Virus record (IMG/VR): IMGVR_UViG_3300001335_000125
Location: 9,891 to 73,890 of that record
Source: a virus
Lineage: Duplodnaviria > Caudoviricetes
Strand: one strand, 5' to 3'
DNA length: 64,000 nucleotides
Notes under the pieces: model-generated
Databases searched by the model: none
What the model was told of the DNA's origin: nothing
Seen by the model: the letters and a program-made list of their open reading frames with translations, nothing else
Shown: positions 1,883-61,400 of the stretch, piece by piece
How positions within the stretch are numbered: the stretch's first letter is position 1
Layout of the letters: each line of letters opens with the position of its first letter
Position numbers and translations under genes: made by a program

Positions 1883-4800
1883 ATGTATTTACCTGTTTCA
1901 TATGACCAAGAATTTGACGATTTATTTATGTATCTTAAAGGAAAATATCCCAAAAAATTATTTGACTTAGATGGGATCGGTGATCAACTAGATTTAAGTA
2001 AATTTAGTAAAGAGTTCTTTTCATCAAAAACAACTGCAGATATAAGTGTAGATGATAATGCAAATGTTGACGATATAAGTGTCATTGCATATGTAAAGGA
2101 ATTACCAAAGCCATTCTTTAGGATAAATAGTTACTATATGTTATGGAAAGAATTAAGAAGATTATATGGAAAGGGAATTGCTAATGATATTGTAGATATG
2201 CAATTAAGTGGAGACATATATATAAATGATTTTCATGGATTAGGTTCCGGAATTTCTTATTGTTTCAATTATTCTACATATGATATTATGATGGAAGGTC
2301 TTCCTATGATAAACAAGATAACATCCACTGCACCAAATCATTTGTACTCTTTCAAATCTCAGATAGAACAATTCACTATTATAGCAGCTAATAGCACTCT
2401 AGGAGCAACAGGATTAGCTGATTTGTTAATAATTATGTCATATTATGTAAAGAAAATATTAGATACAAAAGAGGATGCTCATTTTAAATTTAAGACTGAT
2501 GAAGATGCATGGACATATATAAAGGAGAACCTCGTATCTCTGATATATACTCTTAATCAACCAACAAGAGGTAATCAATGCTTAAGTGATGATACAAAAA
2601 TATTAACTGAAAATGGGTGGAAGTCATACAACGAAATAATGCTCGGAGATAATATATATACAATGAATCTAAATAACAATAGATTAGAGTCTAAGAAAGT
2701 ATTAAATATGTTCATTAAAGATTATGAAGGAGAAATGTATAATCTTAAAAATAGAATACAAGATCAACTGATCTCTCCTGAGCATAAGGTTGTTAGAAAA
2801 GTGTTTAATACTAAAGATAACTATGTACTAGAACCAATAGAAGATGTATATAAACTAAAATCTCCACAAATAATTCCTATAGGATGTGACAACGATGAAC
2901 CAGATTATGATATAACTGATAATGAATTAAGATTAGTTTCATGGATTGTATCAGAAGGATCTGTAAGTAAAGATTATAGACTTACAATAAGTCAATCAAA
3001 AATAGAGAATCCTAATTACTACTATGAAATTAAAGAATTATTAAACACTTTAAATTATACTTATTCAGAGTTAGTTGTGAAGACTGGACTAGGAAATGAT
3101 ACTAATATATTTAGATTAATAAAGTCTGATTCACTAAAAATAATTAAGGAATTATTTGACAATAAAGGGATTAAATTTATTCCTGATTGGATAGGAAAAC
3201 TATCACAAAGACAAGCAAGAATATTTTTAGATACATATTTACAAGCAGATGGAAATATATCATCAAATACCATTGTTACCACAGTTCCTGAAGTTTTAGA
3301 TAATCTTGAAATATTGTGTGTAAAGGCAGGATATGGGTTTTCATCAAAACCAAAAAATATTGAACATAACAAACTATCTAAAAAACCACAATATCAGATA
3401 AGAATATTAAAACATAGGGATACGTATATTCAGAAGATAGAAAAAGTAAATTATAATGGTAAGATATGGTGTCCAACAACAGTTAATGGAACTGTTATAG
3501 CTAAGAGAAATGGAAAGGTGTTTATTACTGGAAATAGTTGTTTTACTAATGTATCTATATATGATAATGCATTCTTAGATCATCTTATACCTGACTATCT
3601 TTTCCCGGATGGTAGTACCCCAGATAAAGATATCATTAAAAAATTACAAGAACTATTGTTAGTAGTTCTCAATGAAGAGTTAAAAAGAACACCAATAACT
3701 TTTCCTATCGTAACTGCTTGTTTCTCGATAGATAAGGAAAATAATATACAAGACGAGGAGTTTGCTAGATTTATAGCAAAATATAATAAAGAGTATGGGT
3801 TTATTAATATATATTGTGGAACGTCTAGTACTTTATCATCTTGTTGTTTTCATCCAGATACTCCAATACTTGCAAAATCATCAAATGGGGTTAAATGGAT
3901 GTCCTTTAAAGATTATCATGCCCTAAATTGGGAAAAAGATAAGAAGAATACAACTATATTTCATAACGGAAGTTGGTGTAAAGGCAACTCATTAAAATTA
4001 CCGTATGGTAGAAAGTTATATAATATACAGACTTCCAATAATAAAGAAATATTAGTGACAGATGATCATATTCATCCAACAATAGAAGGAGATAAGCCTA
4101 CTACAGAACTTACAGAGAATGATTATTTGTTATTTAATAGCCTACCACTAAATACATTTCCAGAAAAGGACATGAAATTAACTTATGAACAAGGATATCT
4201 TATAGGACTCTATTTAGGAGATGGTTCAAAATATAAGAATGTAAAATATGAGTCTTATACAAATACGCTCTCAATGGGATTAAATGACTATGATATTATT
4301 CCTATAGTGAGAAAAGCACTAGATGATTGGGGAATAACAACACAGATTCGTGCTAATGAAGTCGATTATAATGTTCTTTCTATACAAGTATGCTCTAAAG
4401 TTTTGTTTGATATAATAAATGAATGGGTATACGGAAACTATGCTCATACTAAAGAGCTTAACATGCAATGTATAATTCAATCACTAAAATTTAGAGAGGG
4501 AATATTAGATGGATGGTATAAATCGGATGGGGGAAACTCCAATAGGATATATACAACTTCAAAGAAACTATCAGAATGTGGAGAACTATTAATAACATCA
4601 ATAGGAAAACAATCCATAATTAATATAGAGGATAGAACCAATGAAAAAATTGTTATAAGAGGAGAAGTATATAACAGAAACTATCCAAGTATATGTGTAA
4701 GGTGGTATGATTCTAAGAATAAACGAAGTATGTCAGGAGTATATAAAGTTAAAAACAACTCGATATACTATAAAATTAAGTCAATAAAGAAACTAGATGA

Positions 4801-5782
4801 AATTCAAGATGAGGTGTATTGTTTTGAAATGAAAAATGAAGAGGAACCATACTTTACATTACCTAACGGAATAATTACTCATAACTGTAGGTTGAGATCT
4901 GATACAAATAATGAGTATTTCAACTCATTTGGTTCGGGTTCATCTAAGATAGGGTCCCTTGGAGTTGTTACTATTAATCTACCACGACTAGCAATTAAAT
5001 ATAAATATGATGAAGAGAAATTCTTTTCTAAATTAAGAGATATGGTTAAGGTATGTTCTCAAGTTAACAATGTTAAAAGAAAATTAGTTCAGAAGAGAAT
5101 AGATAATGGAAATCATCCATTATACTCTTTAGGATTCATTAGTCTTGGTACTCAGTACTCTACCGTTGGATTGAATGGTCTTAATGAAGCAGTTAATATA
5201 TTAGGATATGATTTACTGGATGAGAAAGGACAGTCTGTAGCAGTAAATATAATGAATACTATTAATGATGAGAATGATAAGTATCAAAAACAATACAACT
5301 CTCCTCATAATTGTGAGCAAGTTCCTGGAGAAAGTTTGTCTGTGAAATTAGCAGATAAGGATAAATTATTAAAATACCAAGATACATATGATATATACTC
5401 AAATCAATTTATACCTTTGACAACTAATTCAGACATGTTAGATAGAATATACCTACAGGGTAAATTTGATAAACATTTCTCTGGAGGATCTATCTGTCAT
5501 ATTAATGTAGAGAGTAAAGTAGATAATGAAGACTATATAGTAGAACTTATAAAATCTAGTGCAAAGATGGGAGTTATTTATTTTGCATTAAATTACAATC
5601 TACAAAGATGTGTTAATGGACATCTTACAGTTGGTACTAAAGATAAATGCTCTGTATGTAATGGAGATATAGTAGATAATTATACAAGAGTGGTCGGTTT
5701 CTTAACAAATACTAAGAATTGGAACAAAACTCGCAGAGAAGTAGATTATCCAAATAGAAAATGGTATAGTGAAGTGGAATAA
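1883..5782 (+). CDS. nrdD: anaerobic (class III) ribonucleoside-triphosphate reductase with two inteins; spliced product about 633 aa
   Basis: SC|CRL thiyl-radical loop, C-terminal Zn site (CVNGH..CSVC), glycyl-radical motif YTRVVGFL; followed by nrdG. Confidence 0.92.
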   Translation: MYLPVSYDQEFDDLFMYLKGKYPKKLFDLDGIGDQLDLSKFSKEFFSSKTTADISVDDNANVDDISVIAYVKELPKPFFRINSYYMLWKELRRLYGKGIANDIVDMQLSGDIYINDFHGLGSGISYCFNYSTYDIMMEGLPMINKITSTAPNHLYSFKSQIEQFTIIAANSTLGATGLADLLIIMSYYVKKILDTKEDAHFKFKTDEDAWTYIKENLVSLIYTLNQPTRGNQCLSDDTKILTENGWKSYNEIMLGDNIYTMNLNNNRLESKKVLNMFIKDYEGEMYNLKNRIQDQLISPEHKVVRKVFNTKDNYVLEPIEDVYKLKSPQIIPIGCDNDEPDYDITDNELRLVSWIVSEGSVSKDYRLTISQSKIENPNYYYEIKELLNTLNYTYSELVVKTGLGNDTNIFRLIKSDSLKIIKELFDNKGIKFIPDWIGKLSQRQARIFLDTYLQADGNISSNTIVTTVPEVLDNLEILCVKAGYGFSSKPKNIEHNKLSKKPQYQIRILKHRDTYIQKIEKVNYNGKIWCPTTVNGTVIAKRNGKVFITGNSCFTNVSIYDNAFLDHLIPDYLFPDGSTPDKDIIKKLQELLLVVLNEELKRTPITFPIVTACFSIDKENNIQDEEFARFIAKYNKEYGFINIYCGTSSTLSSCCFHPDTPILAKSSNGVKWMSFKDYHALNWEKDKKNTTIFHNGSWCKGNSLKLPYGRKLYNIQTSNNKEILVTDDHIHPTIEGDKPTTELTENDYLLFNSLPLNTFPEKDMKLTYEQGYLIGLYLGDGSKYKNVKYESYTNTLSMGLNDYDIIPIVRKALDDWGITTQIRANEVDYNVLSIQVCSKVLFDIINEWVYGNYAHTKELNMQCIIQSLKFREGILDGWYKSDGGNSNRIYTTSKKLSECGELLITSIGKQSIINIEDRTNEKIVIRGEVYNRNYPSICVRWYDSKNKRSMSGVYKVKNNSIYYKIKSIKKLDEIQDEVYCFEMKNEEEPYFTLPNGIITHNCRLRSDTNNEYFNSFGSGSSKIGSLGVVTINLPRLAIKYKYDEEKFFSKLRDMVKVCSQVNNVKRKLVQKRIDNGNHPLYSLGFISLGTQYSTVGLNGLNEAVNILGYDLLDEKGQSVAVNIMNTINDENDKYQKQYNSPHNCEQVPGESLSVKLADKDKLLKYQDTYDIYSNQFIPLTTNSDMLDRIYLQGKFDKHFSGGSICHINVESKVDNEDYIVELIKSSAKMGVIYFALNYNLQRCVNGHLTVGTKDKCSVCNGDIVDNYTRVVGFLTNTKNWNKTRREVDYPNRKWYSEVE
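2579..3535 (+). mobile_element. intein NrdD-1 (319 aa) with LAGLIDADG endonuclease
   Basis: starts CLSDDTKILT, ends NGKVFITGN followed by Ser; WIVSEGS and YLQADG blocks. Confidence 0.9.
3845..4885 (+). mobile_element. intein NrdD-2 (347 aa) with LAGLIDADG endonuclease
   Basis: starts CFHPDTPIL, ends NGIITHN followed by Cys; IGLYLGDG and GWYKSDG blocks. Confidence 0.92.
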
Positions 5783-6874: not shown

Positions 6875-7096
6875 ATGGCTAATGGAGGACAGACACTATC
6901 AGCAATCCTTAGAGACTCCCCAAAGAAAAAAGAGAAAAAGGTATTAGAGATAGATGAGGAGAAAGCTAGATTAATACACAATGACCTAGAGAAACTATGG
7001 AATGAAATAGTGAATTCAGATGATACAAAGAAACTCTATGGGAAATATATGTCTATTATAGAACGGTTTAAAGAGGATATTCTCAATGACCGATGA
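6875..7096 (+). CDS. hypothetical protein
   Basis: tightly packed operonic ORF with GAGG upstream. Confidence 0.55.
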   Translation: MANGGQTLSAILRDSPKKKEKKVLEIDEEKARLIHNDLEKLWNEIVNSDDTKKLYGKYMSIIERFKEDILNDR

Positions 7097-7466
7097 TATA
7101 GATGATATCTTTGATATGATGGATAGGGTGTTTGGGAGAACACCCAGACATTCTTATACACGACAAAAGCACATTAGTCCTGATAACTATGAAAGATTGA
7201 TGGATGATGACAATCTTTATTATACATTTGAATTAAGACAGTTTGATAAGGATGATGTTGGAGTAGAATATATAAAGAGCAAATCATCTATGGATACCCA
7301 CGGAACTATTAAGATTGTATTGAATGATGATACATATTCTCCAATGAATCTTAGATTACCGTATCCAATAGAAGATGATAAGATGAAAGTAACATTTAGA
7401 AATGGTATATTAGATATAATGTGTCCGTTAGATAAAGAGAGTATGAAAAAGTTAGAAATAGATTAG
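7086..7466 (+). CDS. small heat-shock protein (Hsp20/alpha-crystallin family)
   Basis: DDIFDMMDRVFG N-terminus; LRLPYPIE..KVTFRNGILDI; C-terminal KKLEID (IxI-like). Confidence 0.75.
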   Translation: MTDDIDDIFDMMDRVFGRTPRHSYTRQKHISPDNYERLMDDDNLYYTFELRQFDKDDVGVEYIKSKSSMDTHGTIKIVLNDDTYSPMNLRLPYPIEDDKMKVTFRNGILDIMCPLDKESMKKLEID

Positions 7467-7475
7467 GAGTATAAT

Positions 7476-8165
7476 ATGGATTGGGTTATTCTAGCAGCAG
7501 GAGAAGGAATGAGGTTACGACCCCTAACATACAACAAACCAAAATGTATGATAAAATTAAATGGTAAGAGTATTATTCATCATAATATTGATATCATTCT
7601 ATCCATGGATAAGAATGCTAGAATAATTATTGTCTCTGGATATAAATCGGATGTGTTGTATAAACACTGTAGGGGATATCCAGGAAAAAAGATATATAAA
7701 CAACAAGCAATACGAAATGGTACTTCTAATGCTATCTATATAGCAAAGGACATAGTAGATGATAGATTCATGGTTGTTTCTGGGGATACATGGATAAATA
7801 AAGATGATATGAAATTGTTGATGAAACATCCAAATAGTTTATTGTATTTTGAAAGAGAAGATAAATTAAACCAGTTCGGTACTATTGAGATGAAGAAAAA
7901 TAAAATATTAAGAATTAATGAGAAAGAAACGAATCCAATATCTAATAAGGTAAATACAGGATTATATCATTTTACAAGAGACATCTTTAAAGCAATAGAA
8001 CGAACTGAGATTGATAAGAGATTTAATGAGAAGATAATAACAAATAGTATTAATAGATATATTAAAGATGGAGGTGTGTTCTATGGATACCCTGCCAAAG
8101 ATATGTTAGAGGTTACAGATCCGAAAGATGTAGATGAAGTTGAGAGGATATTAGATGGTAGATAA
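7476..8165 (+). CDS. sugar-1-phosphate nucleotidyltransferase
   Basis: VILAAGEGMRLRPLTYNKPKCM, GTSNA, VVSGD, VNTGLYHF. Confidence 0.9.
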   Translation: MDWVILAAGEGMRLRPLTYNKPKCMIKLNGKSIIHHNIDIILSMDKNARIIIVSGYKSDVLYKHCRGYPGKKIYKQQAIRNGTSNAIYIAKDIVDDRFMVVSGDTWINKDDMKLLMKHPNSLLYFEREDKLNQFGTIEMKKNKILRINEKETNPISNKVNTGLYHFTRDIFKAIERTEIDKRFNEKIITNSINRYIKDGGVFYGYPAKDMLEVTDPKDVDEVERILDGR

Positions 8166-9069
8166 AAAAACAATTATAATCACTGGAGTATCAGGATTTA
8201 TAGGTAGACACCTATGTAAAAGATTACATAACGAGTATAATATTATAGGATATGATAAAGTTTCTCCACACAAAGACTTTATTAAATATATCGATAGATT
8301 CATCTTAAAAGATATTACAGATGAATTATTGCATCATCAGGATGTCTATGCAGTTATACATCTAGCAGCAAAAGCAGGAGTAAGAGAAAGTCAAACCCAA
8401 TATGAGCAATATGTTAAGGATAATATATTAGGTACTAAAAATGTATTAGATGCATGTGTACAGTGGTGGAAACCAAAAAAGATACTATTGGCATCGTCCT
8501 CTTCAGTATATGGAGATAGGAAAACACCAGGAAGAGAAACGGATATTCCTAATCCAAAATCTCTATATGCTGCATCAAAGTTAGCAATGGAAGATATATC
8601 TAAAGTATATAAGAATACTGGGATGATTAAAGATGATGTATGTAATATGAGAATATTCACTGTATATGGACCACATCAGAGAGAATCATTAGCAATACAT
8701 AAGTTTATAGATGCGGCATTAAAGGATGAGGAAATTACAGTATACGGTACTGGGGAGCAGAGTAGAGACTTTACCTTCATAGAAGACCTGTGTTTTACCA
8801 TAGAGCTGTTGTTGAGAAAACAACATCTACCAGATAAACTCAATGTTGGGTTTGGTAGTACAATAACAGTTAATGAGATACTGGATATCATATCATCTGA
8901 GTTAAATAAGAATCTAAAAATAAAGTATGAACCAATGAATATGTTTGATGTTATGACTACCAAATCAGATACTAGATTATTTAATAGGGTATTACCTGGA
9001 CACAAGCCAGAATTTAGTATACGACAAGGTATTATAAAACAGATAGAAGAAAGGAAGAAACATCTATGA
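8155..9069 (+). CDS. NAD-dependent nucleotide-sugar epimerase/dehydratase (extended SDR)
   Basis: ITGVSGFIG, HLAAKAGV, SSSSVYG, YAASK, FTVYGP. Confidence 0.92.
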   Translation: MVDKKTIIITGVSGFIGRHLCKRLHNEYNIIGYDKVSPHKDFIKYIDRFILKDITDELLHHQDVYAVIHLAAKAGVRESQTQYEQYVKDNILGTKNVLDACVQWWKPKKILLASSSSVYGDRKTPGRETDIPNPKSLYAASKLAMEDISKVYKNTGMIKDDVCNMRIFTVYGPHQRESLAIHKFIDAALKDEEITVYGTGEQSRDFTFIEDLCFTIELLLRKQHLPDKLNVGFGSTITVNEILDIISSELNKNLKIKYEPMNMFDVMTTKSDTRLFNRVLPGHKPEFSIRQGIIKQIEERKKHL

Positions 9070-9956
9070 ATTATGACATAACAATATCATTTGATAAAGC
9101 ATCTTATTTAAATCCAGAGATTTATATGTTAATAGATTCCCTAAAGGACAATATATCAAATAACACAATTTTACATGTAGTCACAAATAGAAATAAAAAT
9201 GACCCAATAAGAAAATATATTAAAGAAAACATTCCTAGTAAATTCTATTTTAAATCTCCCCCTCAAACATTACAATCACGATGTAAGATGATTCTCAATG
9301 CATTTCAGATAAAGAGTGATAAGGACTGGATATTGAAAATAGATGTAGATAACCTTTCATTAAATAAACTAGACTTTGATTTAGATGAAGAAAAAGATAT
9401 ATACATACAACCAGAAAATAGAAGAATTATATTAGATGATAATGTAGAAGAAAGAATTTGGAGAATAATATATAAAAATCTTGGGGTTGAACTACCAAAA
9501 ACTCGTATACCGTCTATAGAAGGTAAAGAAATGATGATGCCCCTATACAACACAGGAACAATATTAATTAACAAAAAACTTATTAGTGTCATAAATAATG
9601 AGTGGATTCCAATGACAGAAATATGTGAAAGATGGATTCATATGGGAATACATCCAAATGAATTTGCAATGACTGCTCTAATGAAAAAACATAATATGAA
9701 TATTGGAATACTCCCAGAAATATATAATTGGAATCCTATTGCACATTTTAGAGATGGAGAATTTCCATCAACGAAATTAATAGCCCAAGCAAAAACTCCA
9801 GATAATATAAAATTATTACATTATCATAAACCTAAGTGGTTACAGCATCTAATGACATATAATGAAGAGATAAATACAATAGTTAGTAATAGTCAAGTTC
9901 ATATTCCAGATAAATGGTGGGATTTGAGTAACCAAACATTTCAGGAGAAACTATGA
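9066..9956 (+). CDS. glycosyltransferase, GT8-like (GT-A)
   Basis: KIDVD (DxD), YNTGTILIN, YNW, LLHY. Confidence 0.65.
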   Translation: MNYDITISFDKASYLNPEIYMLIDSLKDNISNNTILHVVTNRNKNDPIRKYIKENIPSKFYFKSPPQTLQSRCKMILNAFQIKSDKDWILKIDVDNLSLNKLDFDLDEEKDIYIQPENRRIILDDNVEERIWRIIYKNLGVELPKTRIPSIEGKEMMMPLYNTGTILINKKLISVINNEWIPMTEICERWIHMGIHPNEFAMTALMKKHNMNIGILPEIYNWNPIAHFRDGEFPSTKLIAQAKTPDNIKLLHYHKPKWLQHLMTYNEEINTIVSNSQVHIPDKWWDLSNQTFQEKL

Positions 9957-10846
9957 ATATAGGTTATTTTAATGCTCAAGGATTTAATGGAATAGAATAT
10001 TGGTTTCAACTAGAGCAGGATGAACTAAGAAGAAGAGGACATAATGTGAGAACATTTTATTTGAAAGGACCACAACCAACAAAAGAAGATATTGAATGGA
10101 TGGACTTTGCTCATTTTCACTTTGCACATGTTGCAGATAGATATAAGAGGTTGGGAGTTCCATTTTGTGTAAGTCCTCATACCAATGATATATTTCCTGA
10201 TAGTGGTAAAAGATTAAAGAAAGTTAGTAATCATCCAAAATGTAAGTTTGTTACTTATCAATCACAATATCATCTAAAACACTTTTTTGAATGGGGAATA
10301 AAACCACCACTTGTACATCTTCCGATGTGCTGTAGAACTGAACTATTTACTAGAGAGAAATCCAAAGGTGATAGAATGATATGTGGTGGTAGATTAATAC
10401 CCCGTAAAGGTCTAGATAGAATAATGCATCTAGGCAATCTTATAGTATTTGGAGATGGACCATTAGAAAATGAACTTAAAGCAATGAACTCCACCAATAC
10501 ATTCTATGGAAGAGTAGATGGTAAAGAGTTAAAAGAGTTATTTGAAAAGTCGTATGTATATCTATTTCCAAATAGAATAGTTAATGATGGTAATAGAGAT
10601 GGTATCCCTAATACAGTGAAAGAGGCGTTGCTTATGGAATTATATGTAATATCATCTCCAGTAGCTGGATTACCAGAAGTGGATACTGTCATCTTAAATG
10701 AAGATTGGAGTAAAGAAGGAATACAAAGAATATTGGATACTATATCAATAGAGCCTAATAAGAAAGGAAGACAACACATCTTAGATAACTTTAGTCCAAA
10801 AGTGTGCATAGATAAACTAGAGAAAGCTATCGGAGAATATTTATGA
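9953..10846 (+). CDS. glycosyltransferase family 4 (GT-B)
   Basis: GRLIPRKG, GDGPL, DGIPNTVKEA, SPVAGLPE. Confidence 0.85.
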   Translation: MNIGYFNAQGFNGIEYWFQLEQDELRRRGHNVRTFYLKGPQPTKEDIEWMDFAHFHFAHVADRYKRLGVPFCVSPHTNDIFPDSGKRLKKVSNHPKCKFVTYQSQYHLKHFFEWGIKPPLVHLPMCCRTELFTREKSKGDRMICGGRLIPRKGLDRIMHLGNLIVFGDGPLENELKAMNSTNTFYGRVDGKELKELFEKSYVYLFPNRIVNDGNRDGIPNTVKEALLMELYVISSPVAGLPEVDTVILNEDWSKEGIQRILDTISIEPNKKGRQHILDNFSPKVCIDKLEKAIGEYL

Positions 10847-10914
10847 ATGTAGCAGTTTTAGCTAGAGGTAAAAGTTTAATTAATGTAGATAAATTTGATA
10901 ATCAACGAATCTGA
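10843..10914 (+). pseudogene. truncated 5' stub of a gene (MNVAVLARGKSLINVDKFDN...)
   Basis: GGAG RBS and ATGA overlap with the GT4 stop, then runs out of frame into the ThDP-like segment after 23 codons. Confidence 0.55.
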
Positions 10915-12181
10915 TTTTATAATCGCAGTTGGTGTACGACTTGGGTTAAGACAAATTGGTCATTATCATGAGAAATTTGCACCAAATGCATATCTAGTTC
11001 GTGCAGATATTGACCAAAGTGAACTAGCTCGTACAATTAAATCTGATGAAGAGAAAGTCTTAATAGATGCTAATGATTTTTTGCAACGTTTAATGGAGGA
11101 GGATATTCCTGATTATTCTGATTGGGCTGAGAAGTGTTTTAAACTTAGAGATTTTTTAGATGGATATGATGATGTAATTGGGAATCTAGCTTTGAAAAAA
11201 ATATCTTCTATGCTACCTGAAAACCCAATTGTTGCAGTTGATGTAGGACAGCATCAATGTTGGAGTGCTCAGTCATTAACTTTGAAAGGAGATAAAGGAA
11301 GAATACTAATAAGCGGAGGGTATGGTTCTATGGGATGTGCATTGCCATATGCAATTGGTGCTTCAATATCTCAAAATTATTGCAAAGTATTTTGTGTGAC
11401 AGGTGACGGTGGTTTGCAAATGAATATTCAAGAGCTGGAGACTATTATAAGAGAGAATATACCCGTGAAAATTCTTGTCATCAATAATCATGTACTAGGT
11501 AAGATTAGTGAAGTACAAGAAAAATCTTATAACTCAGCATTTGCCCAAACTACAGAATCTAGTGGATTTTCAGTACCAGATTTTAAAAAGATTGCAATTG
11601 CTTATGGAATTAAATGGTTTGCATCTGCTTGGGATATACCAAGTCAAGAATTCTTAGATAAATATGATTTAGAATATAATAAGATTGCATCCGCTATGAT
11701 AACTAACCTCCCCTTTATACTTTCTGTAGCTAAGAAAAGAAAACTTACATTTATATCTACAGGAATGACTACCTACAATGATATTGATAATGCAATTAAA
11801 ATATTTGAAGAAGAAAATTGTCCTTATGTTCTTATGTATTGTGTATCCATTTACCCAACTCCAAACGAATTACTAAACCTATCAATGATAAATACATTAA
11901 GAGAGAAGTATAATTGTGAAGTAGGATACTCTTGTCATCATAAAAGTATACTTCCTGCAGCATTATCTGTTATGTATGGAGTTAAATATATAGAAAAACA
12001 CATAACACTAGATAGAACAATGTACGGGTCCGACCAATCTGCATCTATAGAGCCAAAAGGGATGTTGATGTTAAGAGGATATGTAGATACGGCATTAGAA
12101 TCTATTGGTGATGGAATTAAAACAAATGTGAAAGGAGAAGACAAAATAGCAAATAAATTGAGGTATTGGAAAAATGAATAA
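10895..12181 (+). CDS. chimeric ORF: C-terminal half of an acetolactate-synthase-like ThDP enzyme fused to the C-terminal half of a NeuB-family nonulosonate synthase
   Basis: 10895-11614: DVGQHQ, GSMG, GDGGLQMNIQELET, NN (ThDP motif). 11615-12181: WFASAWD, ISTGM, CVSIYP, GYSCH, IEKHITLDR, GSDQSAS (NeuB). Both N-terminal halves are missing; TTG start without an RBS. Confidence 0.8.
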   Translation: MIINESDFIIAVGVRLGLRQIGHYHEKFAPNAYLVRADIDQSELARTIKSDEEKVLIDANDFLQRLMEEDIPDYSDWAEKCFKLRDFLDGYDDVIGNLALKKISSMLPENPIVAVDVGQHQCWSAQSLTLKGDKGRILISGGYGSMGCALPYAIGASISQNYCKVFCVTGDGGLQMNIQELETIIRENIPVKILVINNHVLGKISEVQEKSYNSAFAQTTESSGFSVPDFKKIAIAYGIKWFASAWDIPSQEFLDKYDLEYNKIASAMITNLPFILSVAKKRKLTFISTGMTTYNDIDNAIKIFEEENCPYVLMYCVSIYPTPNELLNLSMINTLREKYNCEVGYSCHHKSILPAALSVMYGVKYIEKHITLDRTMYGSDQSASIEPKGMLMLRGYVDTALESIGDGIKTNVKGEDKIANKLRYWKNE

Positions 12182-12569
12182 AATATTCGATGAACTTGTT
12201 ACTTTATTTAATAATAGCAAAGGAGAAATTGTAAAAAAATATTGGGGATTTGAGTATATCCCTACAAATAATAATAATTATTGTTTAAAAGGACTAGTAT
12301 TTTATAAAGGTCAAGAGATACCTAATCATTATCATAAAGTAAAAACAGAGTCTTGGTATTGTGTATCTGGAAAACTTAAATGTTTATTGGCAGATAAAGA
12401 ATTTTTTATTTTACCTGGAGATGTAATAGATATATTGGATGTAGAAGTCCCTCATAAATTATGGGCAATTGAAGATTCTATTATATTTGAAGTGTCAACC
12501 CATCATTCTGATTCTGATACTATACGATTAGATAATCCAGGAGAAAAGTATGAATCTAAACGGACTTAG
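12174..12569 (+). CDS. cupin-fold protein (sugar isomerase-like)
   Basis: KYWGFE, HYHKVKTESWY, VPHKLWA, EVSTHH. Confidence 0.75.
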   Translation: MNKIFDELVTLFNNSKGEIVKKYWGFEYIPTNNNNYCLKGLVFYKGQEIPNHYHKVKTESWYCVSGKLKCLLADKEFFILPGDVIDILDVEVPHKLWAIEDSIIFEVSTHHSDSDTIRLDNPGEKYESKRT

Positions 12570-13350
12570 TACAGTAAATATAGAATTAACATCTAGATGT
12601 AATAAAAATTGTTGGATGTGTGGTAGACGTAAAATTGATAAAGAATATCCAGAAATAGCAATGAATTATGGAGATATGGATTTTAATTTATTAAAAAAAC
12701 TCTCAAAACAAATACCAGAAGATATTGTAATTCAATTCCATGATAATGGAGAACCAACTTTATATCCTAAATTAGGGGATGCTCTTAAACTATTTAGTAA
12801 TAATATAAGAAATTTTGATACCAATGGAAAATTATTATTAGAAAAATCTAATGAGATTATTGGTAATCTAGAAACATTAACAATTTCTGTATTCGAAAGA
12901 GATCCAGAGGGAGACGAACAATATAATATTGTAAAAGAATTCTTAAAAATTAAAGGAGATAGAAAACCACATCTTATTTATAGATTATTAGGAGATGTAA
13001 GTGATTCAGAAAGATGGTATGAATTGCCTGGAGTAGTAGCAACTAGAATATTACATCATCCTTTAGGGAATTATAAATATAAAAAAAGAAATCCTACGGT
13101 TCCAGAAATAGGAATCTGCTTAGATTTATTAAGTCATTTAGTTATAGATAAGGATGGAAATGTTTTTCCTTGTGTTAGATTTGATCCTGAGAAAAAACAA
13201 TGTATTGGAAATATAAATGAAATGACATTAACAGATATATGGAATGGAGAGAAAAGAAAAACAATGATACTCGGTCATCTAAAAGGAGATAGAAGTAAGT
13301 TCCCAATATGTAAAGACTGCCAATATTGGGGAGTTCCTACAGGAATATGA
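12550..13350 (+). CDS. radical SAM protein with SPASM/twitch domain
   Basis: CNKNCWMC, GEPTL, DTNG; C-terminal GNVFPC..IGNI..CKDC. Confidence 0.88.
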   Translation: MNLNGLSTVNIELTSRCNKNCWMCGRRKIDKEYPEIAMNYGDMDFNLLKKLSKQIPEDIVIQFHDNGEPTLYPKLGDALKLFSNNIRNFDTNGKLLLEKSNEIIGNLETLTISVFERDPEGDEQYNIVKEFLKIKGDRKPHLIYRLLGDVSDSERWYELPGVVATRILHHPLGNYKYKKRNPTVPEIGICLDLLSHLVIDKDGNVFPCVRFDPEKKQCIGNINEMTLTDIWNGEKRKTMILGHLKGDRSKFPICKDCQYWGVPTGI

Positions 13351-13679
13351 AAAAAGTAGATAAAAGTTGGGGATATGAAGAGTGGTATGTAAATAATGAT
13401 ATGTATTGTTGTAAACATTTACATTTAAATAAAGGTTATATGTGTAGTATTCATTATCATAAAGAAAAGGACGAGACATTTTATATATTAAAAGGTAAAG
13501 TTAAAATGGAATTATTTGGCGAAACAAGGATAATGAAAGAAGGAGATTCACTTAGACTTAATCCATATACATTACATAGATTTATAGGATTAGAAGATTC
13601 TATTATATTAGAGGTATCAACTACTCATAAAGACTATGATAGTTATAGAGTTGTCGTTGGAGGAAAATCTAACATTTAA
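13347..13679 (+). CDS. cupin-fold protein (paralog of 12174..12569)
   Basis: KSWGYEE, SIHYHKEKDETFY, HRFIG, EVSTTH; ATG at 13347. Confidence 0.78.
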   Translation: MKKVDKSWGYEEWYVNNDMYCCKHLHLNKGYMCSIHYHKEKDETFYILKGKVKMELFGETRIMKEGDSLRLNPYTLHRFIGLEDSIILEVSTTHKDYDSYRVVVGGKSNI

Positions 13680-13716
13680 GAGGAATGAATATGAATAAAT
13701 TCATTAAATTGGAGAA

Positions 13717-14796
13717 ATGATTATGAATCCTAAGATTAGTATTATTTTACCTACTGCAACAAAACAATCAGATATCGAATTAAAATTAAATCAAATTAAA
13801 GAAGGAATAAAAAACACAAATGACACTATATTTAACGATGAATTTATTAATTTATGTAATGAGATAGTATTACCTGTAGAACACTTTTTAGAAATTACAT
13901 TATTGGCATTAAGAAAACAAATATTCAAAGAGTTTGAACTAATTATTGTACATAAATATCCAGAAGATGCATTAGATATAGTTAAAAAATATCCTGACAT
14001 TAAAGTTAAATTAATTAAAGAAAAGGATTCTGTATGGCATAAATATAAAAGACCCACTCATAGTGGATCTATTAATACAGGATTTATATATGCAGATGGA
14101 GAACTATTAATAAGATTAGATGATTTTGAGTTCTTTAATGAATTCTATCTACAAGAAATGTGGAATACATGGAAACAAAAGAAAAGTTATATTACATCTA
14201 AAGTAGTAAGGAGAATTAAGTATGATAAAGATAAATATGATGAACCTCGTAATATTGAATATATTGGCAATAAAATAAAAGTTATTAATAATGGATGGTA
14301 TGGTGTTGAAAAACCTATTAGTACAAATAAAGAGATAAGTAAACATATGACTTGGGGACATTCATCATCCGTTTCTCTTAGAGATATACTTAAGATTAAT
14401 GGTCACGATGAAGTATTTGATGGCAATATAGATGGTAATGATATGGAACTTGGTTATCGCTTATATTATTCAAGTCGACATAAAAGATATGTGAGTGATA
14501 ATTGGGTTTATGAATTGGACTGTTCAACTTCTAATAAAGGGAAAACAAAGTTTAGAGATGATATATATCTTAGAAATATAGTTAATCCTATTAGTGAATA
14601 CAATTTCCCTAGACATATTGTTGCTAATAAATACAAACCTAAAGAATCAGAATTGAAAGAGTATGAAACTTATCATAAAAAAATGTATGGAGAATTAAAT
14701 CCAAATTGGAAGAAATTTATGGAATCTCCAATGTATGATCTTAAAGAAGAGAGAAGAAAAAAGGTTTTAGGTAAGTTAATATATACAAATATATAA
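13717..14796 (+). CDS. glycosyltransferase family 2-like (GT-A)
   Basis: ISIILPT, FELIIV, RLDD (DxD), INGHDEVF..GNDMELGYRL. Confidence 0.75.
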   Translation: MIMNPKISIILPTATKQSDIELKLNQIKEGIKNTNDTIFNDEFINLCNEIVLPVEHFLEITLLALRKQIFKEFELIIVHKYPEDALDIVKKYPDIKVKLIKEKDSVWHKYKRPTHSGSINTGFIYADGELLIRLDDFEFFNEFYLQEMWNTWKQKKSYITSKVVRRIKYDKDKYDEPRNIEYIGNKIKVINNGWYGVEKPISTNKEISKHMTWGHSSSVSLRDILKINGHDEVFDGNIDGNDMELGYRLYYSSRHKRYVSDNWVYELDCSTSNKGKTKFRDDIYLRNIVNPISEYNFPRHIVANKYKPKESELKEYETYHKKMYGELNPNWKKFMESPMYDLKEERRKKVLGKLIYTNI

Positions 14797-14849
14797 TATA
14801 TTGAAAATATGTCAAAATACATAGAATGAGTTATAGGAGTTGAATAATT

Positions 14850-15416
14850 ATGTGGACTAAAGAAACATTAGAAGAATTTTTATTAGATAAACAAAACCGC
14901 TCCGTAGATGTTGAAGAATATTTACTTATGATTAATTATATAAATATACTAAAACCAACAACCATTATTGATATTGGTACATTTATGGGGACATCTGGTT
15001 ATATACTTGGTAAGTCTTGTCCAAGTATTAAAAAGATATACTCTATCGATAATATAAACTCTCCTGAATACTTTGAAAAGGACGATGCTACTAAAGCTGA
15101 CCATGGTAAATATCTACCAAATGATGCGGTGTTTCTTAAGGAGGGATATGAAAATGGAGTGTTAGAACAGATAGTAAATAACAATCCTAATTGCTTTGTG
15201 TTCTGGGATGCCGGGAAGAATCCTATTAAAGTTACAAGACAACTTGAACTATCAAAACAATTAGGTATTAAACATTTAGCAGTGCATGATACTGGATTAA
15301 AAAAAGTTAATAAAGTTATTGAGAGAATTAATAGATTTGGTTGGTACAAAACAGTGTTAGAAGACATAACTAGTTGCCCCAAGAAAGGAGTAACTATTAT
15401 GGAGTTAGTTGAATGA
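14850..15416 (+). CDS. class I SAM-dependent methyltransferase
   Basis: IIDIGTFMGTSG motif I, YSID, FWDA, AVHD. Confidence 0.75.
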   Translation: MWTKETLEEFLLDKQNRSVDVEEYLLMINYINILKPTTIIDIGTFMGTSGYILGKSCPSIKKIYSIDNINSPEYFEKDDATKADHGKYLPNDAVFLKEGYENGVLEQIVNNNPNCFVFWDAGKNPIKVTRQLELSKQLGIKHLAVHDTGLKKVNKVIERINRFGWYKTVLEDITSCPKKGVTIMELVE

Positions 15417-15904
15417 GAAAAGAAAGTGAATTAGAAAAAATAGCAAAAACCATTACAAAAATAGATGATAAACTATATATATCTGGTAGTATTAGTGATT
15501 ATAATGAATTAGAAAGACTGGGTATTAATAAAGTTATAAACTGCAGAGCTGAATGTCATGATGATATTTATGAACTTAGTAGAAGAGGAATTGGTTATTA
15601 TTGGATTCCAGTAAATGATTTTGAAGCTCCACGATTTGACCAGTTTGATGCAGTTGAAGATATTCTACGTAATGGAACTTCATTTGATAAAATACTAATT
15701 CATTGTGCTATCGGATTAGGAAGAGCAATTATTATATCTTCTATTTATATGATATATCATAAAGGGTGTACTATAGATGAGGCTTTAGAATGGTTAGGAC
15801 ATGAAAGAGGTATATTGTTCCCAACAAAAGAACAGAAAACAAAATTAGAAAAATATATAAAGTATGTTAATAATGGTAGAAAACTAAAAGAAATAAAAGA
15901 TTGA
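15413..15904 (+). CDS. dual-specificity protein phosphatase family protein
   Basis: LIHCAIGLGR (HCxxGxxR), IPVND, KVINC. Confidence 0.85.
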   Translation: MRKESELEKIAKTITKIDDKLYISGSISDYNELERLGINKVINCRAECHDDIYELSRRGIGYYWIPVNDFEAPRFDQFDAVEDILRNGTSFDKILIHCAIGLGRAIIISSIYMIYHKGCTIDEALEWLGHERGILFPTKEQKTKLEKYIKYVNNGRKLKEIKD

Positions 15905-16770
15905 GGAATATAATGGTTAGTATAGGAATTATAGGATATGGAATGGTAGGTAGAGCAATTCATTCTGGATTTGCCAAACAATGTGATTTTAGAATATATG
16001 ATATAGATGATACTATCTCTGAGAATACCTTTGAAGAAGTATCTATAGATAGTGACTATATCTTTGTATGTGTACCAACACCAATGAAGTCTACAGGACA
16101 ATTTGACTCGTCTATCTTAGACTATACAATAGATAAGTTAAATGAATATGTAAAAGATACTGATAAGATAGTTATTATAAAGTCTACATGTCTACCAGGA
16201 ACAACAAAAGGATACCAAGAAAAATATCCTAATAGCCATATAGTCTTTAGTCCAGAATTTCTTACAGTAAGAAGTGCTAGGTTAGATTTTATCAATCCAT
16301 CTAGAATAATCTTTGGACTCGATCAAAAAAATTATGAGAGAAATCAGTGGGAGATGAATGTTTTATATGAGTTATATCATCCTAGATTTCCATCTTACAA
16401 TCTACACTTTACAGATGCTACTACTGCTGAATTAGTGAAGTATGTATCTAATTGTTTCTTTGCCACTAAAGTATCATTCTTTAACGAGATGAAACAAATA
16501 TCAGATGCATTAGGAGTTAGTTATCCTAGACTATTGAAATATGTTTTAAAAGATGGTAGAATCGGTAATAGTCACTGGGAAGTTCCTGGTCATGATATGT
16601 TACATGGATTTGGGGGCCAGTGCTTTCCCAAGGATTTGAATGCATTAATACATCTAGAAAAAGAGTTAGGTATAAATCCTACTATGTTGGATGCGGTTTG
16701 GAAGAAAAATCTAGAGGTTAGAGAAAAAAGGGACTGGGAAGAAAATAAAAGTGCTTTTACGAGTGATTAA
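15901..16770 (+). CDS. UDP-glucose/GDP-mannose 6-dehydrogenase family (short form lacking the C-terminal domain)
   Basis: GIIGYGMVG, VCVPTP, KSTCLPGT, SPEFL, KYVSNCF, GFGGQCFPKD. Confidence 0.9.
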   Translation: MRNIMVSIGIIGYGMVGRAIHSGFAKQCDFRIYDIDDTISENTFEEVSIDSDYIFVCVPTPMKSTGQFDSSILDYTIDKLNEYVKDTDKIVIIKSTCLPGTTKGYQEKYPNSHIVFSPEFLTVRSARLDFINPSRIIFGLDQKNYERNQWEMNVLYELYHPRFPSYNLHFTDATTAELVKYVSNCFFATKVSFFNEMKQISDALGVSYPRLLKYVLKDGRIGNSHWEVPGHDMLHGFGGQCFPKDLNALIHLEKELGINPTMLDAVWKKNLEVREKRDWEENKSAFTSD

Positions 16771-16787
16771 TGGGGGTTAGGATACCC

Positions 16788-16830
16788 CGAAATTATCGCT
16801 GAGGATCCACGGAAACGGGTCTAGAATCGA
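16788..16830 (+). repeat. 43-bp GC-rich intergenic repeat, copy 1
   Basis: CGAAATTAT-N4-GAGGATCCACGGAAACG-N3-CTAGAATCGA; 36/43 identical by hand alignment to the reverse complement of 33728-33770. Confidence 0.85.
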
Positions 16831-16860
16831 CGCGGAGGTATTACCAATACATATATGTAT

Positions 16861-16886
16861 CCCCTTTCATTTTAGGGGTTTTCTTT
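16861..16886 (+). terminator. hairpin plus T-tract at the end of the + strand operon
   Basis: CCCCT-ttcatttt-AGGGG followed by TTTTCTTT, in the convergence zone. Confidence 0.5.
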
Positions 16887-16898
16887 ATATACTAAATC

Positions 16899-16931
16899 AA
16901 ATTTTCGTCGAGGAAGGCCGGAAACGACCCT
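16899..16931 (+). repeat. GC-rich repeat, partial copy 3
   Basis: AAATT..GAGGA..CGGAAACGACCCT with block spacing identical to copy 1. Confidence 0.7.
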
Positions 16932-16955
16932 CTAAGGCAAAAACTATTTTTAATA

Positions 16956-17297
16956 CTACCTTTTTCCACCAAAATATGCTATTGCATGCCCTTTTTCGAT
17001 AAGTTCTTGGTTGATATTAATATCATCTAAAAATATCTCAACAAGGTATCTTCCATACTTTTCTTGTTTGTATGTTTTGACCCTTACTGTCTTATTTAGG
17101 ACTCTTTCACGTAGATAGTCACGGGCTAGATATCCTCTTCTTTTCTCATCTAAATCTTTTGTTCTAATTTCAGGGGTATCTATACCATACAATCTACATT
17201 TTAATTTGATATGTACACTACATCCAAGATCAAATAGAATATTACAAGTATCACCATCATAAATTGATAATACTTCTGCATAATATTCATATACCAT
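16956..17297 (-). CDS. thermonuclease (SNase-like) family protein
   Basis: SIYDGDT, RLYGIDTPE, KYGRYL, NQELIEKGHA. Confidence 0.9.
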   Translation of the reverse strand: MVYEYYAEVLSIYDGDTCNILFDLGCSVHIKLKCRLYGIDTPEIRTKDLDEKRRGYLARDYLRERVLNKTVRVKTYKQEKYGRYLVEIFLDDININQELIEKGHAIAYFGGKR

Positions 17298-58432: not shown

Positions 58433-61400
58433 TTATATTTTATAGATTTTATAAGATTGCTTTGATGAAATTAAGTCCTTCACCTTGGAGTAATCTATAA
58501 AACCACTTGATTCAAATGTTTGAATTGCAAATGATAATGAGTCTGCACAATTATGGACTATCATACCATCAGCTATAAAACTATTATCATTTTCAATTGT
58601 TAAGTCGTATACATCCCCTTCGTAGTGATATTCATCAACTCCAATACTGTGTCCACCAAATTCATTTGTTCCTATTTCTTTTAAAGAGCATTGGTGAGTT
58701 CGTTTATATTTTATCGATACTGTATATACATCTTTACACTCAATATCATATCTATATACTTTTCTCTTATTAATTACTGCATACCACCCACGACTTAAAG
58801 CTATATCTCTCATAGATAGTGCTAATTTCTTACTAGTACTTTGACCATAGATATCATATATTTTTCTATTTGTTAATGTCCATCCATCTCCATCAAGCCA
58901 TCCATCTAGAGTATATTGTAAATCTTTACCAAGATGGTAATGATATGGTGGTAATTGCTTTTCTTTATCTTCATCATAACAGTCCTTAAATAAATTCCAA
59001 TATAATTTATTATTAATTCTAATGACTTTACAATGATTATCTTTATAGTGACTAATATATGAATTTATATTTCTGTCAGAGAAATAACTAATAACTTTAT
59101 TTATTAACTTTTCTTCAGTTTCATTAAAGGAAAAATTAAATTCATAATTTAAATTCCCTTGTCTATTTCTCCCATTACTACAATGACCCTCTGCAAGAAA
59201 CAATCCAAGTATATATGCAAAATCTTTATCTAATGTTATGGATTTGTAACTGGTATTATCACTCTTTTCTTTTATATAGTAATCTTCTTCATATAAAGTG
59301 TAGTTTTCATTTTCATTATATGATTCTATTGGTATAATATTTCTATATGTTTTGTGCCATTTGCTAGATTCTGTAAATTGCCTTTTTGTATCTTCTTTTA
59401 GGGGAACTTTACTATTTCCATAGGAGTGAGATGATGTATATATCTTATGATCTTCACTCAACTCTAAATTTAGTTGACCAACAAAGTTTCTTTTATGAAA
59501 TGTTCCATTGAATGGTTTTTTAATAGTTCTTATTACTGGTTGATATCTATGTTTGTGAGTATATACTAAATCACCTACTTGAACATCCTTTATTTTCTTA
59601 TATCCTTCTAAAGTTTTTACTAATGTATCCTCCCTAAAACAATCATCATGTCTACCTCGAGGATATATCATTAATTCATCTCGAAGATGAACAAACGCTG
59701 GATTCATATAGACTCTATTGGTTTCAAATAAAAGAGACATTCTGTCCATACGAGTATCTCTATCATTTACAATGGATGATTTTATTGGAATAATAGGTAA
59801 TTGGGGGTTACTTTGTATAATATCGTCAACAATGATTTTCTGTTGGGCTGAGGCCTCTAGCCCGATTCTCGATGGATGCCATTTCTCATCCATTGCTTTT
59901 ATAATTTCTAGTTGTCTATGTAGGGATGTGTGGGTTCTATAGTTATCGAGGATATAGATATCCCCCATTTCATCTACACCTACTACTGATAATGCAAAGT
60001 AATCGGATGTGGTATCTTCTCCACCGAAATCAACTCCCATGAAGAGTTTAAGATTTGTAGGAAGAATACCATCTAGTCTTATAAATTTATTGATTGAGTT
60101 TTCTAACCACTCTGGTTTGAATTTGGATATACCTGTGGATATTATCTCATTCTGGTATTGCATTTGGAAATGGAGTTCGCCTTGATGTTCCCTTACAAAT
60201 TTTAGGGTTAGTGCATCTTCAGGAATAAGTGGTTTACTTTCTTCCTTAAGTTTTATATTAAGCTCTTTAATCATCTCAACATCCCATGGAAGATGTGTAG
60301 GCCAAAGAACTTCTGCTTTCTTATTGGGTTCCTCTACAGGATCTATTAGTAGTGCTTTATATTTCATAAAGGTAAATCCTGCTTTGTTTCCAAGATACGA
60401 ATGAATATCATCTTCATGCCATTTTGTGTTATGAACAACCAATCCTTCTACAATGAAATTTTCATTATCTTCAATACTTAAATCAAATACTTCTTGTTTT
60501 CCAATTAAGGTTTTTGATTTTACCCTTTCAAATCCAAAGTCTTTATGTAGATTTACTTTACCTAATACACTATTATATCTTTTATCTTTGTTTCTATATG
60601 GAGTAAAACTAACTGCTGTATGATAGAAAGTATGATATTCGGCTGTTTTTGAGTTTGGTGCTTTAATCTTTCTTGTCCTAGTATACATAGGAGTTGATAT
60701 TAATCCTGTTATCTTACATAACCTTTTAATATCTTTTATTAAATTTTCAGAGACAGTCTCAATTGCATATCTATCAATCCCTGTTTTAGTCCCATCTGCA
60801 TCTAATAATCCTCTTAAGAACTCCTTTCTATATTCTATTGGTTGTGTGAAAACCCAAGACGGAATATCTTTATTTTTTGCACCAACATTTAAATTACACT
60901 TCTTCAAAGTTCTTCCAAATTCATTACGATAATATATACATTCACTTTCAGTTTCTTTAGATGGATTATAACCAAAGATATCATAGATTAGTTTCTTAGC
61001 CTTATTATTTAAATCTTCGTATATTCCCTTAGAGAATGTAACTATATATCTCATACTTCCTTGTTTATTCGGATGTTCAGTTACCCAACCATCTCCAGTT
61101 AGAAATCCAAATAACCACATATATTCTGGAGTTATATTCTTAAATGGAAGATTATTTAAGATATCTATTGAATTGTTACTTTCTTTAATTTCTTTTGGGC
61201 ACACTACAAAGTCATTCTTAGTTAAATTGATTAATTTCTTATATCCCAAACATCTTTCATCTTTATCCCAAACAAGAAAAGGATGATCATATGTAGCTCT
61301 TGTAATAGTATTTGATGTTCTTAATTCGTAAACCTCCTTTTTTCCTTGAGGTATTGATGCTATAACTTTCTTTTTTTCTAATCCATTAGAATTATAAGAA

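Follow-up and report, generated by a model that had tools for sequence, protein, structure and literature searches.

Within a 64,000-nucleotide window (bases 9891-73890 of the single 73.9-kb viral contig IMGVR_UViG_3300001335_000125), we analysed a block of sugar-related genes, hereafter the island, that closes with a short nucleoside diphosphate (NDP)-sugar-dehydrogenase-like enzyme. Positions 7476-16770 are occupied by 12 co-oriented, tightly packed plus-strand open reading frames (ORFs), whose junctions are mostly overlaps of 4-25 bases, with gaps of 9-53 bases (Table 1). An initial annotation had described a co-oriented, overlapping operon here, and the packing of the ORFs together with profile and fold matches bears this out for all the gene families that it named. 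Eleven of the 12 ORFs are intact and retain their catalytic motifs in an AT-rich genome. The island (GC 0.297, against 0.323 for the window) has a composition like that of the rest of the contig, which carries an HK97-type major capsid protein (MCP), portal, protease, terminase and tail genes, as judged from PHROG and Pfam matches. It forms the end of an enzyme arm, and its last gene, the short dehydrogenase, faces an oppositely oriented tail-fibre module.

Table 1. Features of the island and of the gap that follows it, in window coordinates, with their occurrence in related loci. Counts refer to ten loci longer than 12 kb and zeros to all 26 loci of the scan with the glycosyltransferase 2 (GT2) alignment. 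aa, amino acids; GT, glycosyltransferase; SDR, short-chain dehydrogenase/reductase; SAM, S-adenosylmethionine; TPP, thiamine pyrophosphate.
Feature	Position	Strand	Evidence	Related loci
Sugar-1-phosphate nucleotidyltransferase, 229 aa	7476-8165	+	PF00483 (E 6e-25)	5/10
Extended SDR	8155-9069	+	PF01370 (E 4e-48), full length	an SDR in 10/10 (45-51% identity in five, 24-32% paralogues in the others)
GT8-like retaining GT-A glycosyltransferase, 296 aa	9066-9956	+	fold match only	5/10
GT4-type (GT-B) glycosyltransferase, short, 297 aa	9953-10846	+	PF13692 (40 bits, cut-off 27)	7/10
23-codon stub ORF	10843-10914	+	read from sequence; ATG overlaps GT4 stop; ends in TGA, out of the chimera frame	
In-frame chimera of a TPP-enzyme fragment (10895-11614) and the C-terminal two thirds of NeuB (~11615-12181)	10895-12181	+	Pfam TPP_enzyme_M, TPP_enzyme_C, NeuB	NeuB 6/10; TPP fragment 0/26
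Cupin A, small metal-binding cupin	12174-12569	+	PF07883 (E 7e-6)	cupins in 3-4 of 10
Radical-SAM/SPASM enzyme, BtrN-like, 266 aa	12550-13350	+	PF13186 (E 6e-14); weak PF04055	1/10
Cupin B	13326-13679	+	PF07883 (E 2e-11); likelier start ATG 13347	cupins in 3-4 of 10
GT2 (GT-A) glycosyltransferase	13717-14796	+	PF00535 (33.5 bits, cut-off 23.3)	10/10 (query)
Methyltransferase-like protein	14850-15416	+	PF01596 (E 4e-4), below Pfam cut-off	6/10
Cys-based dual-specificity phosphatase	15413-15904	+	PF00782 (E 5e-15); HCxxGxxR present	0/26
Short NDP-sugar-dehydrogenase-like enzyme	15901-16770	+	PF03721 (E 3e-19), PF00984 (E 2e-22); likely start ATG 15913	9/10
Terminator-like hairpin with T-run	16861-16878	+	consensus scan only; inside the convergent gap 16770-16956	

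Relatives of the virus were gathered by searching viral contigs with the dehydrogenase alignment and then testing the contigs for the MCP. The true relatives, on contigs of 50-145 kb, have an MCP 53-58% identical to that of the window. Each of them has a sugar block on the plus strand, closed by the short dehydrogenase and facing genes for tail, baseplate and fibres on the minus strand. In total, a sugar island at this site was seen on ten or more large viral contigs related to this one. Scanning metagenomes with the GT2 alignment yielded ~26 full-length homologues, and gene content was counted in the ten loci longer than 12 kb (Table 1). In six of these ten, tail genes converge directly after the dehydrogenase. 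A block of SDR, GT8-like and GT4 genes (45-58% identity) recurs in relatives in the order seen in the window. Other ORFs in the islands of relatives encode further SDRs, DegT aminotransferase, carbamoyltransferase, sugar C-methyltransferase and phosphoenolpyruvate (PEP) mutase, as well as adenosine phosphosulfate (APS) kinase, sulfotransferase, cytidylyltransferases and UDP-GlcNAc 2-epimerase. Across the lineage, the island consists of a kept core, made up of the SDR, GT8-like, GT4, GT2 and short dehydrogenase genes, and of interchangeable tailoring genes. Scans of viral contigs with the nucleotidyltransferase alone gave no matches, and those with NrdG alone gave one locus, which lacks the island.

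The short dehydrogenase, conserved as the last gene of the island, is its underexplored and most interesting element. Its sequence contains a Rossmann motif (GIIGYGMVG) and GGQCFPKD as the catalytic motif. The motifs of the catalytic Cys, Lys and Asn are retained, and residues C241, K244 and D245 are invariant in 20 homologues. The C-terminal UDP-sugar-binding domain (PF03720) is absent: the protein ends ~45 residues past the catalytic Cys, and its match to the family model stops at position 297 of 413. Every solved UDP-glucose dehydrogenase (UGDH) has at least 393 amino acids, and no solved form is as short as the window dehydrogenase. In a search in which thousands of family members were scored, all 120 that were listed have 267-300 amino acids and the same two domains. 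A truncated pseudogene was rejected as an explanation, since the ~280-amino-acid form represents a large conserved family. At least 594 copies are present in IMG/VR, the closest homologues are 76-80% identical, and the nearest Atlas clusters are 83-100% viral, with one form fused to a cytidylyltransferase-like domain. An extended SDR lies near the short dehydrogenase in 56 of 80 viral loci. Such short enzymes are labelled simply UDP-glucose dehydrogenase in the literature, and a literature search on the short architecture itself found nothing.

One further locus bears on whether the enzyme is active. In the relative L048 (IMGVR_UViG_3300028920_001945, positions 10016-11929, plus strand), a LAGLIDADG intein, beginning with C and ending with HN, splits the dehydrogenase between GFGGL and CFPKD. 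The intein directly precedes the catalytic cysteine, which doubles as its +1 nucleophile, and this insertion at the active site argues for a working, constrained dehydrogenase.

Two further enzymes of the island resemble proteins that supply activated sugars. The nucleotidyltransferase comprises the N-terminal catalytic domain only, has about the length of AglF and contains the GxGxRL-type motif AAGEGMRLRPLT. Its top NCBIfam models are archaeal (Arch_glmU, 157 bits; AglF, 112 bits), both scores lying under the equivalog cut-offs. Among the ten related loci, its homologues are 43-48% identical in two, with weaker matches (24-31%) in three more. In the SDR, the motifs TGVSGFIG, ASSSSVYG and YAASK (YxxxK) provide the glycine-rich NAD motif and the Ser/Tyr/Lys triad. 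Its best solved relative is the UDP-glucuronic acid 4-epimerase MoeE5 (6kv9; E 1e-43, 153 bits, end-to-end alignment), followed by the 6zl6 series of such enzymes (128 bits), at a similarity that is moderate only. Next, by a small distance, comes 5u4q, deposited as a dTDP-glucose 4,6-dehydratase (127 bits), whereas UDP-glucuronic acid decarboxylase scores 78 bits. The predicted activity of the SDR is thus closest to that of UDP-glucuronate 4-epimerases, by a modest margin over other SDR types.

All three glycosyltransferases of the island, and the three types proposed by the initial annotation, were upheld by profile or fold, with Pfam matches for GT4 and GT2 and a modelled LgtC-like fold for the GT8-like enzyme. 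The 296-amino-acid GT8-like ORF had no Pfam match at E <= 0.01 (PF01501 included) and no NCBIfam match, and its family is very small, with 27 matches at E <= 1e-3 among 1.84 billion representatives. Its AlphaFold model (pLDDT 93) retrieved LgtC (GT8) first in a Foldseek search (E 2.5e-10, TM 0.55-0.58), and UGGT, LARGE1, XXYLT1, GlyE and 3tzt were also matched; D95 in its DVD motif is invariant. The designation 'GT8-like' holds for this predicted structure by fold only, not as membership by sequence. The GT4 enzyme has additional, weaker matches to PF00534 and PF13439, and its homologues in related loci are 37-58% identical. The C-terminal half of the GT2 enzyme is lineage-specific, and the gene can be used as a lineage marker: a word-indexed search returned a single other real homologue, and the metagenome homologues, many of them on contigs of 46-145 kb, are 37-45% identical. 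Given the low confidence of the GT2 model (pLDDT 60), structural comparison was limited to the N-terminal core, where 250 residues match WrtF, TarS, RmlT and TarP (Z 14-15).

The likeness of the nucleotidyltransferase to archaeal GlmU/AglF, the likeness of the SDR to MoeE5 and the position of the dehydrogenase near the SDR suggest a route from hexose-1-phosphate to a 4-epimerised NDP-hexuronate. The nucleotidyltransferase would activate hexose-1-phosphate to NDP-hexose, the short dehydrogenase would oxidise this to NDP-hexuronate, and the SDR would epimerise the product at C4. Further tailoring of a sugar may fall to the BtrN-like radical-SAM dehydrogenase and both cupins, perhaps also to the methyltransferase, and the three cytoplasmic glycosyltransferases would then assemble a short acidic glycan on the acceptor. 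Primary sugar phosphates and any membrane step would be supplied by the host. No transmembrane segment was found in the island proteins (the top 19-residue hydropathy, 1.78, falls on the phosphatase active site), and therefore the island holds no carrier-priming enzyme, flippase, polymerase or oligosaccharyltransferase. The proposal of a self-contained, near-complete pathway is thus not supported. Of the activated uronic and nonulosonic sugars that the same proposal foresaw, the uronate and its transfer by three enzymes are plausible, and the nonulosonic branch is broken.

This break lies in the ORF between the GT4 and cupin A genes, an in-frame chimera of a TPP-enzyme fragment and NeuB. The TPP part corresponds to residues 67-306 of the 369-amino-acid protein P0121 (middle-plus-C-domain type), with 77% identity. 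The NeuB part runs from about residue 92 of the intact 278-amino-acid NeuB of the relative G004 to the natural end and is 48% identical to it; the Pfam match (PF03102) covers model positions 43-241 only. The first ~91 NeuB residues are lost, and the other frames contain no trace of them. For the chimera, the reading frame is open from 10889 at the earliest; its start codon is TTG, and a ribosome-binding site is lacking. No fused TPP-NeuB homologue was found among 5.8 billion proteins; because of this, and because both halves are internal fragments, we rejected a conserved functional fusion. From its sequence, the chimera is probably a non-functional scar. The proper ATG, at 10843, instead opens the 23-codon stub that overlaps the beginning of the chimera in another frame. 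This stub is what is left of the 5' end of a lost gene and resembles the N-terminus of the G004 cytidylyltransferase (ARG-x-S pattern), over a stretch too short for a test. In G004, the intact NeuB is followed by this PF02348 cytidylyltransferase, which as a query gave no match in window positions 7001-17000. As NeuB is broken and the window has no cytidylyltransferase, the ulosonic-acid branch appears dead in this virus. The synthesis of nonulosonic sugars anticipated by the initial annotation is thereby not sustained: its NeuB is a fragment joined to another fragment, and a CMP-sugar synthetase is lacking.

The TPP piece has its source in a large family of ~370-amino-acid TPP-dependent proteins (P0121-P0240) with middle and C-terminal domains only, that is, without the N-terminal pyrimidine-binding domain, encoded on contigs of up to 1.76 Mb. 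Its 77% identity to this outside family is well above that of the other island genes to their homologues. A compositionally foreign origin of the piece was not supported, its GC at third codon positions being 0.19, like that of its neighbours.

The remaining ORFs lie outside the kept core of the island. Cupin A matched generic cupins in the Protein Data Bank (PDB) and has homologues in three of the ten related loci. For cupin B, first place goes to YxaG, a two-domain cupin (quercetin dioxygenase) that is matched in part, and the best PDB match of the same size is KdgF, a uronate cupin of pectin degradation (5fpz, E 6e-8); its homologues in relatives are 37-61% identical. The radical-SAM enzyme has the CX3CX2C motif at C17, C21 and C24 and a C-terminal domain for auxiliary Fe-S clusters. 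Its best solved relative is the sugar-alcohol dehydrogenase BtrN (4m7t, 270 amino acids; E 1.3e-12), which has the same compact length and aligns in both cluster regions, at moderate similarity; the substrate of BtrN is an aminocyclitol in antibiotic synthesis. The radical-SAM gene is scarce among relatives, its homologue in the one related locus being 27% identical. The methyltransferase-like protein contains the motif-I-like string IIDIGTFMGTSG and had no significant PDB match; its homologues, 26-38% identical, lie beside GT2 in five of the six related loci that have one, and by sequence its assignment as a methyltransferase is weak. The phosphatase matched protein phosphatases in the PDB (DUSP26, DUSP10), not sugar phosphatases. 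It is a generic enzyme that no related locus shares, and a role for it in the pathway is not supported.

Several loci illustrate how the variable genes change. On metagenome contig Ga0180433_10043995 (L122:1-4252), the end of a radical-SAM gene is 94% identical to that of the window, next to a cupin of 60% and a GT2 of 40% identity, which suggests recent swapping of single island genes among members of the lineage. The island of IMGVR_UViG_3300028920_000038 (L002:5100-8700, plus strand) contains a 167-amino-acid TPP_enzyme_C protein and an Fe-type alcohol dehydrogenase. One PEP mutase was found among the island ORFs of relatives, its host contig unspecified; if it belongs to L002, a phosphonate branch would replace the middle genes of the window there. 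In L048 (positions 2722-3831, plus strand), a 370-amino-acid ORF has a match to cupin A at its start, a cupin near its end and an HNH endonuclease domain in between, which may be the result of a mobile endonuclease invading a cupin gene.

Taking gene content and distribution together, we consider it likely, leaving the acceptor aside, that the virus carries the island as a true accessory cassette, characteristic of its lineage and including a hexuronate route. A join of host DNA to a viral contig by faulty assembly is extremely improbable, because the MCP-verified relatives have the same island/tail layout; the same junction appears in independent assemblies from several samples, and the composition of the island matches that of the remaining contig. 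The recurrence of this layout in the relatives supports the earlier assignment of the island to the virus rather than to a misjoined host fragment. Several observations weigh against the cassette with its hexuronate route. The scores of the nucleotidyltransferase and the dehydrogenase lie far under their equivalog cut-offs, the dehydrogenase is without the UDP-binding domain of every solved UGDH, such that its substrate may not be an NDP-sugar, and no specific function could be assigned to the cupins, the methyltransferase or the phosphatase. With the phosphatase and TPP fragment in no relative and the radical-SAM gene rare, some of the island genes may be cargo that was shuffled in. In addition, adjacency to the tail genes may only reflect the meeting of two convergent arms. 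Taken to its end, the idea of shuffled cargo would make the island a landing zone of accessory genes, partly decaying, with a stable role left to the dehydrogenase and GT2 core alone. Gene content indeed differs strongly among relatives, two fragments are fused in one chimeric gene, the phosphatase is found on this contig alone, and the radical-SAM piece of L122 is 94% identical beside neighbours of 40-60%. However, the SDR-GT8-like-GT4 block, GT2 and the dehydrogenase recur in the same order on many contigs, and decay is confined to a single ORF, the others keeping their catalytic motifs despite the AT-rich genome; we therefore regard a mere landing zone as improbable. A bolder version of the cassette goes further and is, in our estimate, unlikely, if less so than the landing zone. 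In it, the two-domain dehydrogenase would be a virus-specific form in which the UDP-binding domain was lost and another activated substrate is used, as the fusions with cytidylyltransferase-like domains would indicate. With the BtrN-like enzyme and the cupins it would make an undescribed acidic sugar under anoxia, the tail-fibre proteins of an archaeal virus would receive this sugar directly from the lineage-specific GT2 and GT8-like enzymes, and the variable genes would diversify the coat from strain to strain.

The acceptor of the cassette's glycan would best be sought among virion proteins, above all Ser/Thr-rich tail and fibre proteins, an assignment that we hold tentatively and at somewhat less than even chance. 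It is favoured because the position next to the tail module is kept, the enzymes are soluble, the tail proteins are moderately rich in Ser and Thr and no integrase was found. Proteins of the tail module contain 20-25% Ser+Thr, against 11-16% in head proteins and enzymes, and the five lineage contigs, which are incomplete records, yielded no integrase. Alternatively, the modified sugars could be fed into or added to a glycan of the host envelope, for example the lipid-linked N-glycan of an S-layer, altering receptors during infection and excluding competing viruses. Lipid-linked intermediates can be substrates of soluble or peripheral glycosyltransferases, as in the Haloferax Agl pathway, and the nucleotidyltransferase and dehydrogenase have their best matches among models of the AglF/AglM type. 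Equivalent regions of pelagimyophages and cyanomyophages have been read in the same way (PMC7029224, PMC12801897). On the other hand, the island encodes no membrane protein, flippase or oligosaccharyltransferase, and the failure to find an integrase in those five contigs makes classic lysogenic conversion unlikely. Remodelling of the host surface thus seems a doubtful but substantial contender, less probable than decoration of the virion. The third acceptor named by the initial annotation, DNA, would carry the sugars on modified viral bases as a protection against restriction. Phage glycosyltransferases are known to glycosylate DNA (cited in PMC7029224), but a search of this contig and four relatives, one of them an estimated 87% complete, turned up no hydroxymethylase of the thymidylate synthase family, and in fold lists the three transferases are unlike known DNA glucosyltransferases. 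This last acceptor is very unlikely.

The host of the virus is probably archaeal. The best matches of its MCP and PolB, at low identity, are haloarchaeal tailed viruses. Closer MCP relatives, which are neutral or speak against an archaeal host, occur in Planctomycetota and Saccharibacteria bins, on short contigs where only viral genes are seen. Hallmark searches, in records that are all incomplete, found no PCNA, MCM or TFIIB, and Hjc only below the cut-off; for the terminase, the one genuine match came from a bacterial jumbo phage. Of the archaeal tailed virus first proposed, the tailed virus is borne out by the HK97-type MCP, portal, protease and terminase, and the archaeal host, with mixed markers, is probable only. 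An integrase-flanked provirus with an MCP 40% identical to that of the window lies at ~29.5-43.5 kb of a contig in a Thermoplasmatales-assigned metagenome-assembled genome (G010:C54; L185:9502-10596, L088). Its flank encodes valyl-tRNA synthetase (ValRS), FolD and an HPS/RraA fusion, and the ValRS passes the cut-off of PRK13208, the model for archaeal-type ValRS; the capsid gene is the only one that this provirus has in common with the window.

Several genes of the contig are interrupted by inteins. LAGLIDADG inteins split NrdD, the prohead protease, the portal and the terminase (window positions 1883-5782, 51272-53737, 55746-58130 and 58433-62515). The terminase contains three Hint regions, and its similarity search returned mostly intein matches because inteins interrupt the gene. 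CheckV completeness is 64% for this contig, 45% for G007 (L008, 144.5 kb) and 87% for G002 (137.8 kb); the genomes of the lineage probably measure well over 100 kb, with the 73.9-kb contig incomplete. The terminator-like hairpin in the gap after the island (Table 1) is one of four such sites in the region, against 3.1 expected by chance, which is no excess, and a scan for sigma-70-type promoters found fewer sites than in shuffled sequences.

Virus-encoded soluble glycosyltransferases have precedents. Mycobacteriophage glycosyltransferase genes are reportedly responsible for virion glycosylation (Freeman et al. 2023, cited in PMC12801897). Giant viruses decorate virion proteins in the cytoplasm with soluble glycosyltransferases and sugar-nucleotide enzymes. 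Hosts and enzyme sets differ from those here, and the glycan of the window is a predicted one. In Haloferax volcanii, the uridylyltransferase AglF and the UDP-glucose dehydrogenase AglM (NF041313, NF041297) provide the hexuronic acids of a glycan, which is methylated as well. By comparison, the window enzymes score 112 against a cut-off of 400 and 129 against 670, and the window dehydrogenase has two domains instead of three. Among the Pfam and NCBIfam matches of the island, there was no AglB, flippase or dolichol-phosphate glycosyltransferase family. ANME-1 viruses likewise combine a structural arm with an enzyme arm and have insertions of multigene clusters, NrdD and PolB; the paper describing them mentions no glycan genes, and when annotated virus records were searched with the MCP, none from ANME-1 was returned.

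The closest parallels are the variable, glycosyltransferase-rich regions of pelagimyophages and cyanomyophages, which contain UDP-glucose dehydrogenase and epimerases beside tail-fibre genes (PMC7029224, PMC12801897). Like these, the island is tail-fibre-adjacent and variable and combines glycosyltransferases with sugar-nucleotide enzymes, GT8 being the commonest transferase type in pelagimyophages, and in both cases function is deduced from gene content. The island therefore has the features of a tail-fibre-adjacent variable glycan region in the sense of PMC7029224. In contrast, the pelagimyophages and cyanomyophages are T4-like phages of marine bacteria, whereas the window MCP and PolB are nearest to haloarchaeal tailed viruses. 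Furthermore, the island ends the enzyme arm rather than being embedded in the fibre module, and adds the BtrN-like radical-SAM enzyme and the cupins. In archaeal head-tail viruses of Poseidoniales, single GT4-type genes near tail genes have been read as tail-protein glycosylation (PMC11706807); unlike these viruses, the window has a donor route and three transferases in a 12-gene, lineage-conserved block. With such regions on record, the proposal of an undescribed system is not supported. The island is instead a richer addition to the known tail-adjacent glycan regions, in a different, probably archaeal lineage.

The substrate of the short dehydrogenase, an enzyme that is abundant in viral contigs and lacks the domain by which all solved family members bind the nucleotide, is a testable question in its own right. 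If the glycan is placed on the virion, large and probably archaeal viruses of anoxic habitats would produce sugar donors themselves and use them to modify the structures that recognise the host. The chemistry would then vary by relative, with uronate here and ulosonate, phosphonate, amino, carbamoyl, C-methyl and sulfate groups elsewhere. Overall, the island bears on how viruses of uncultured archaea may vary their adsorption structures or alter the envelopes of their hosts.

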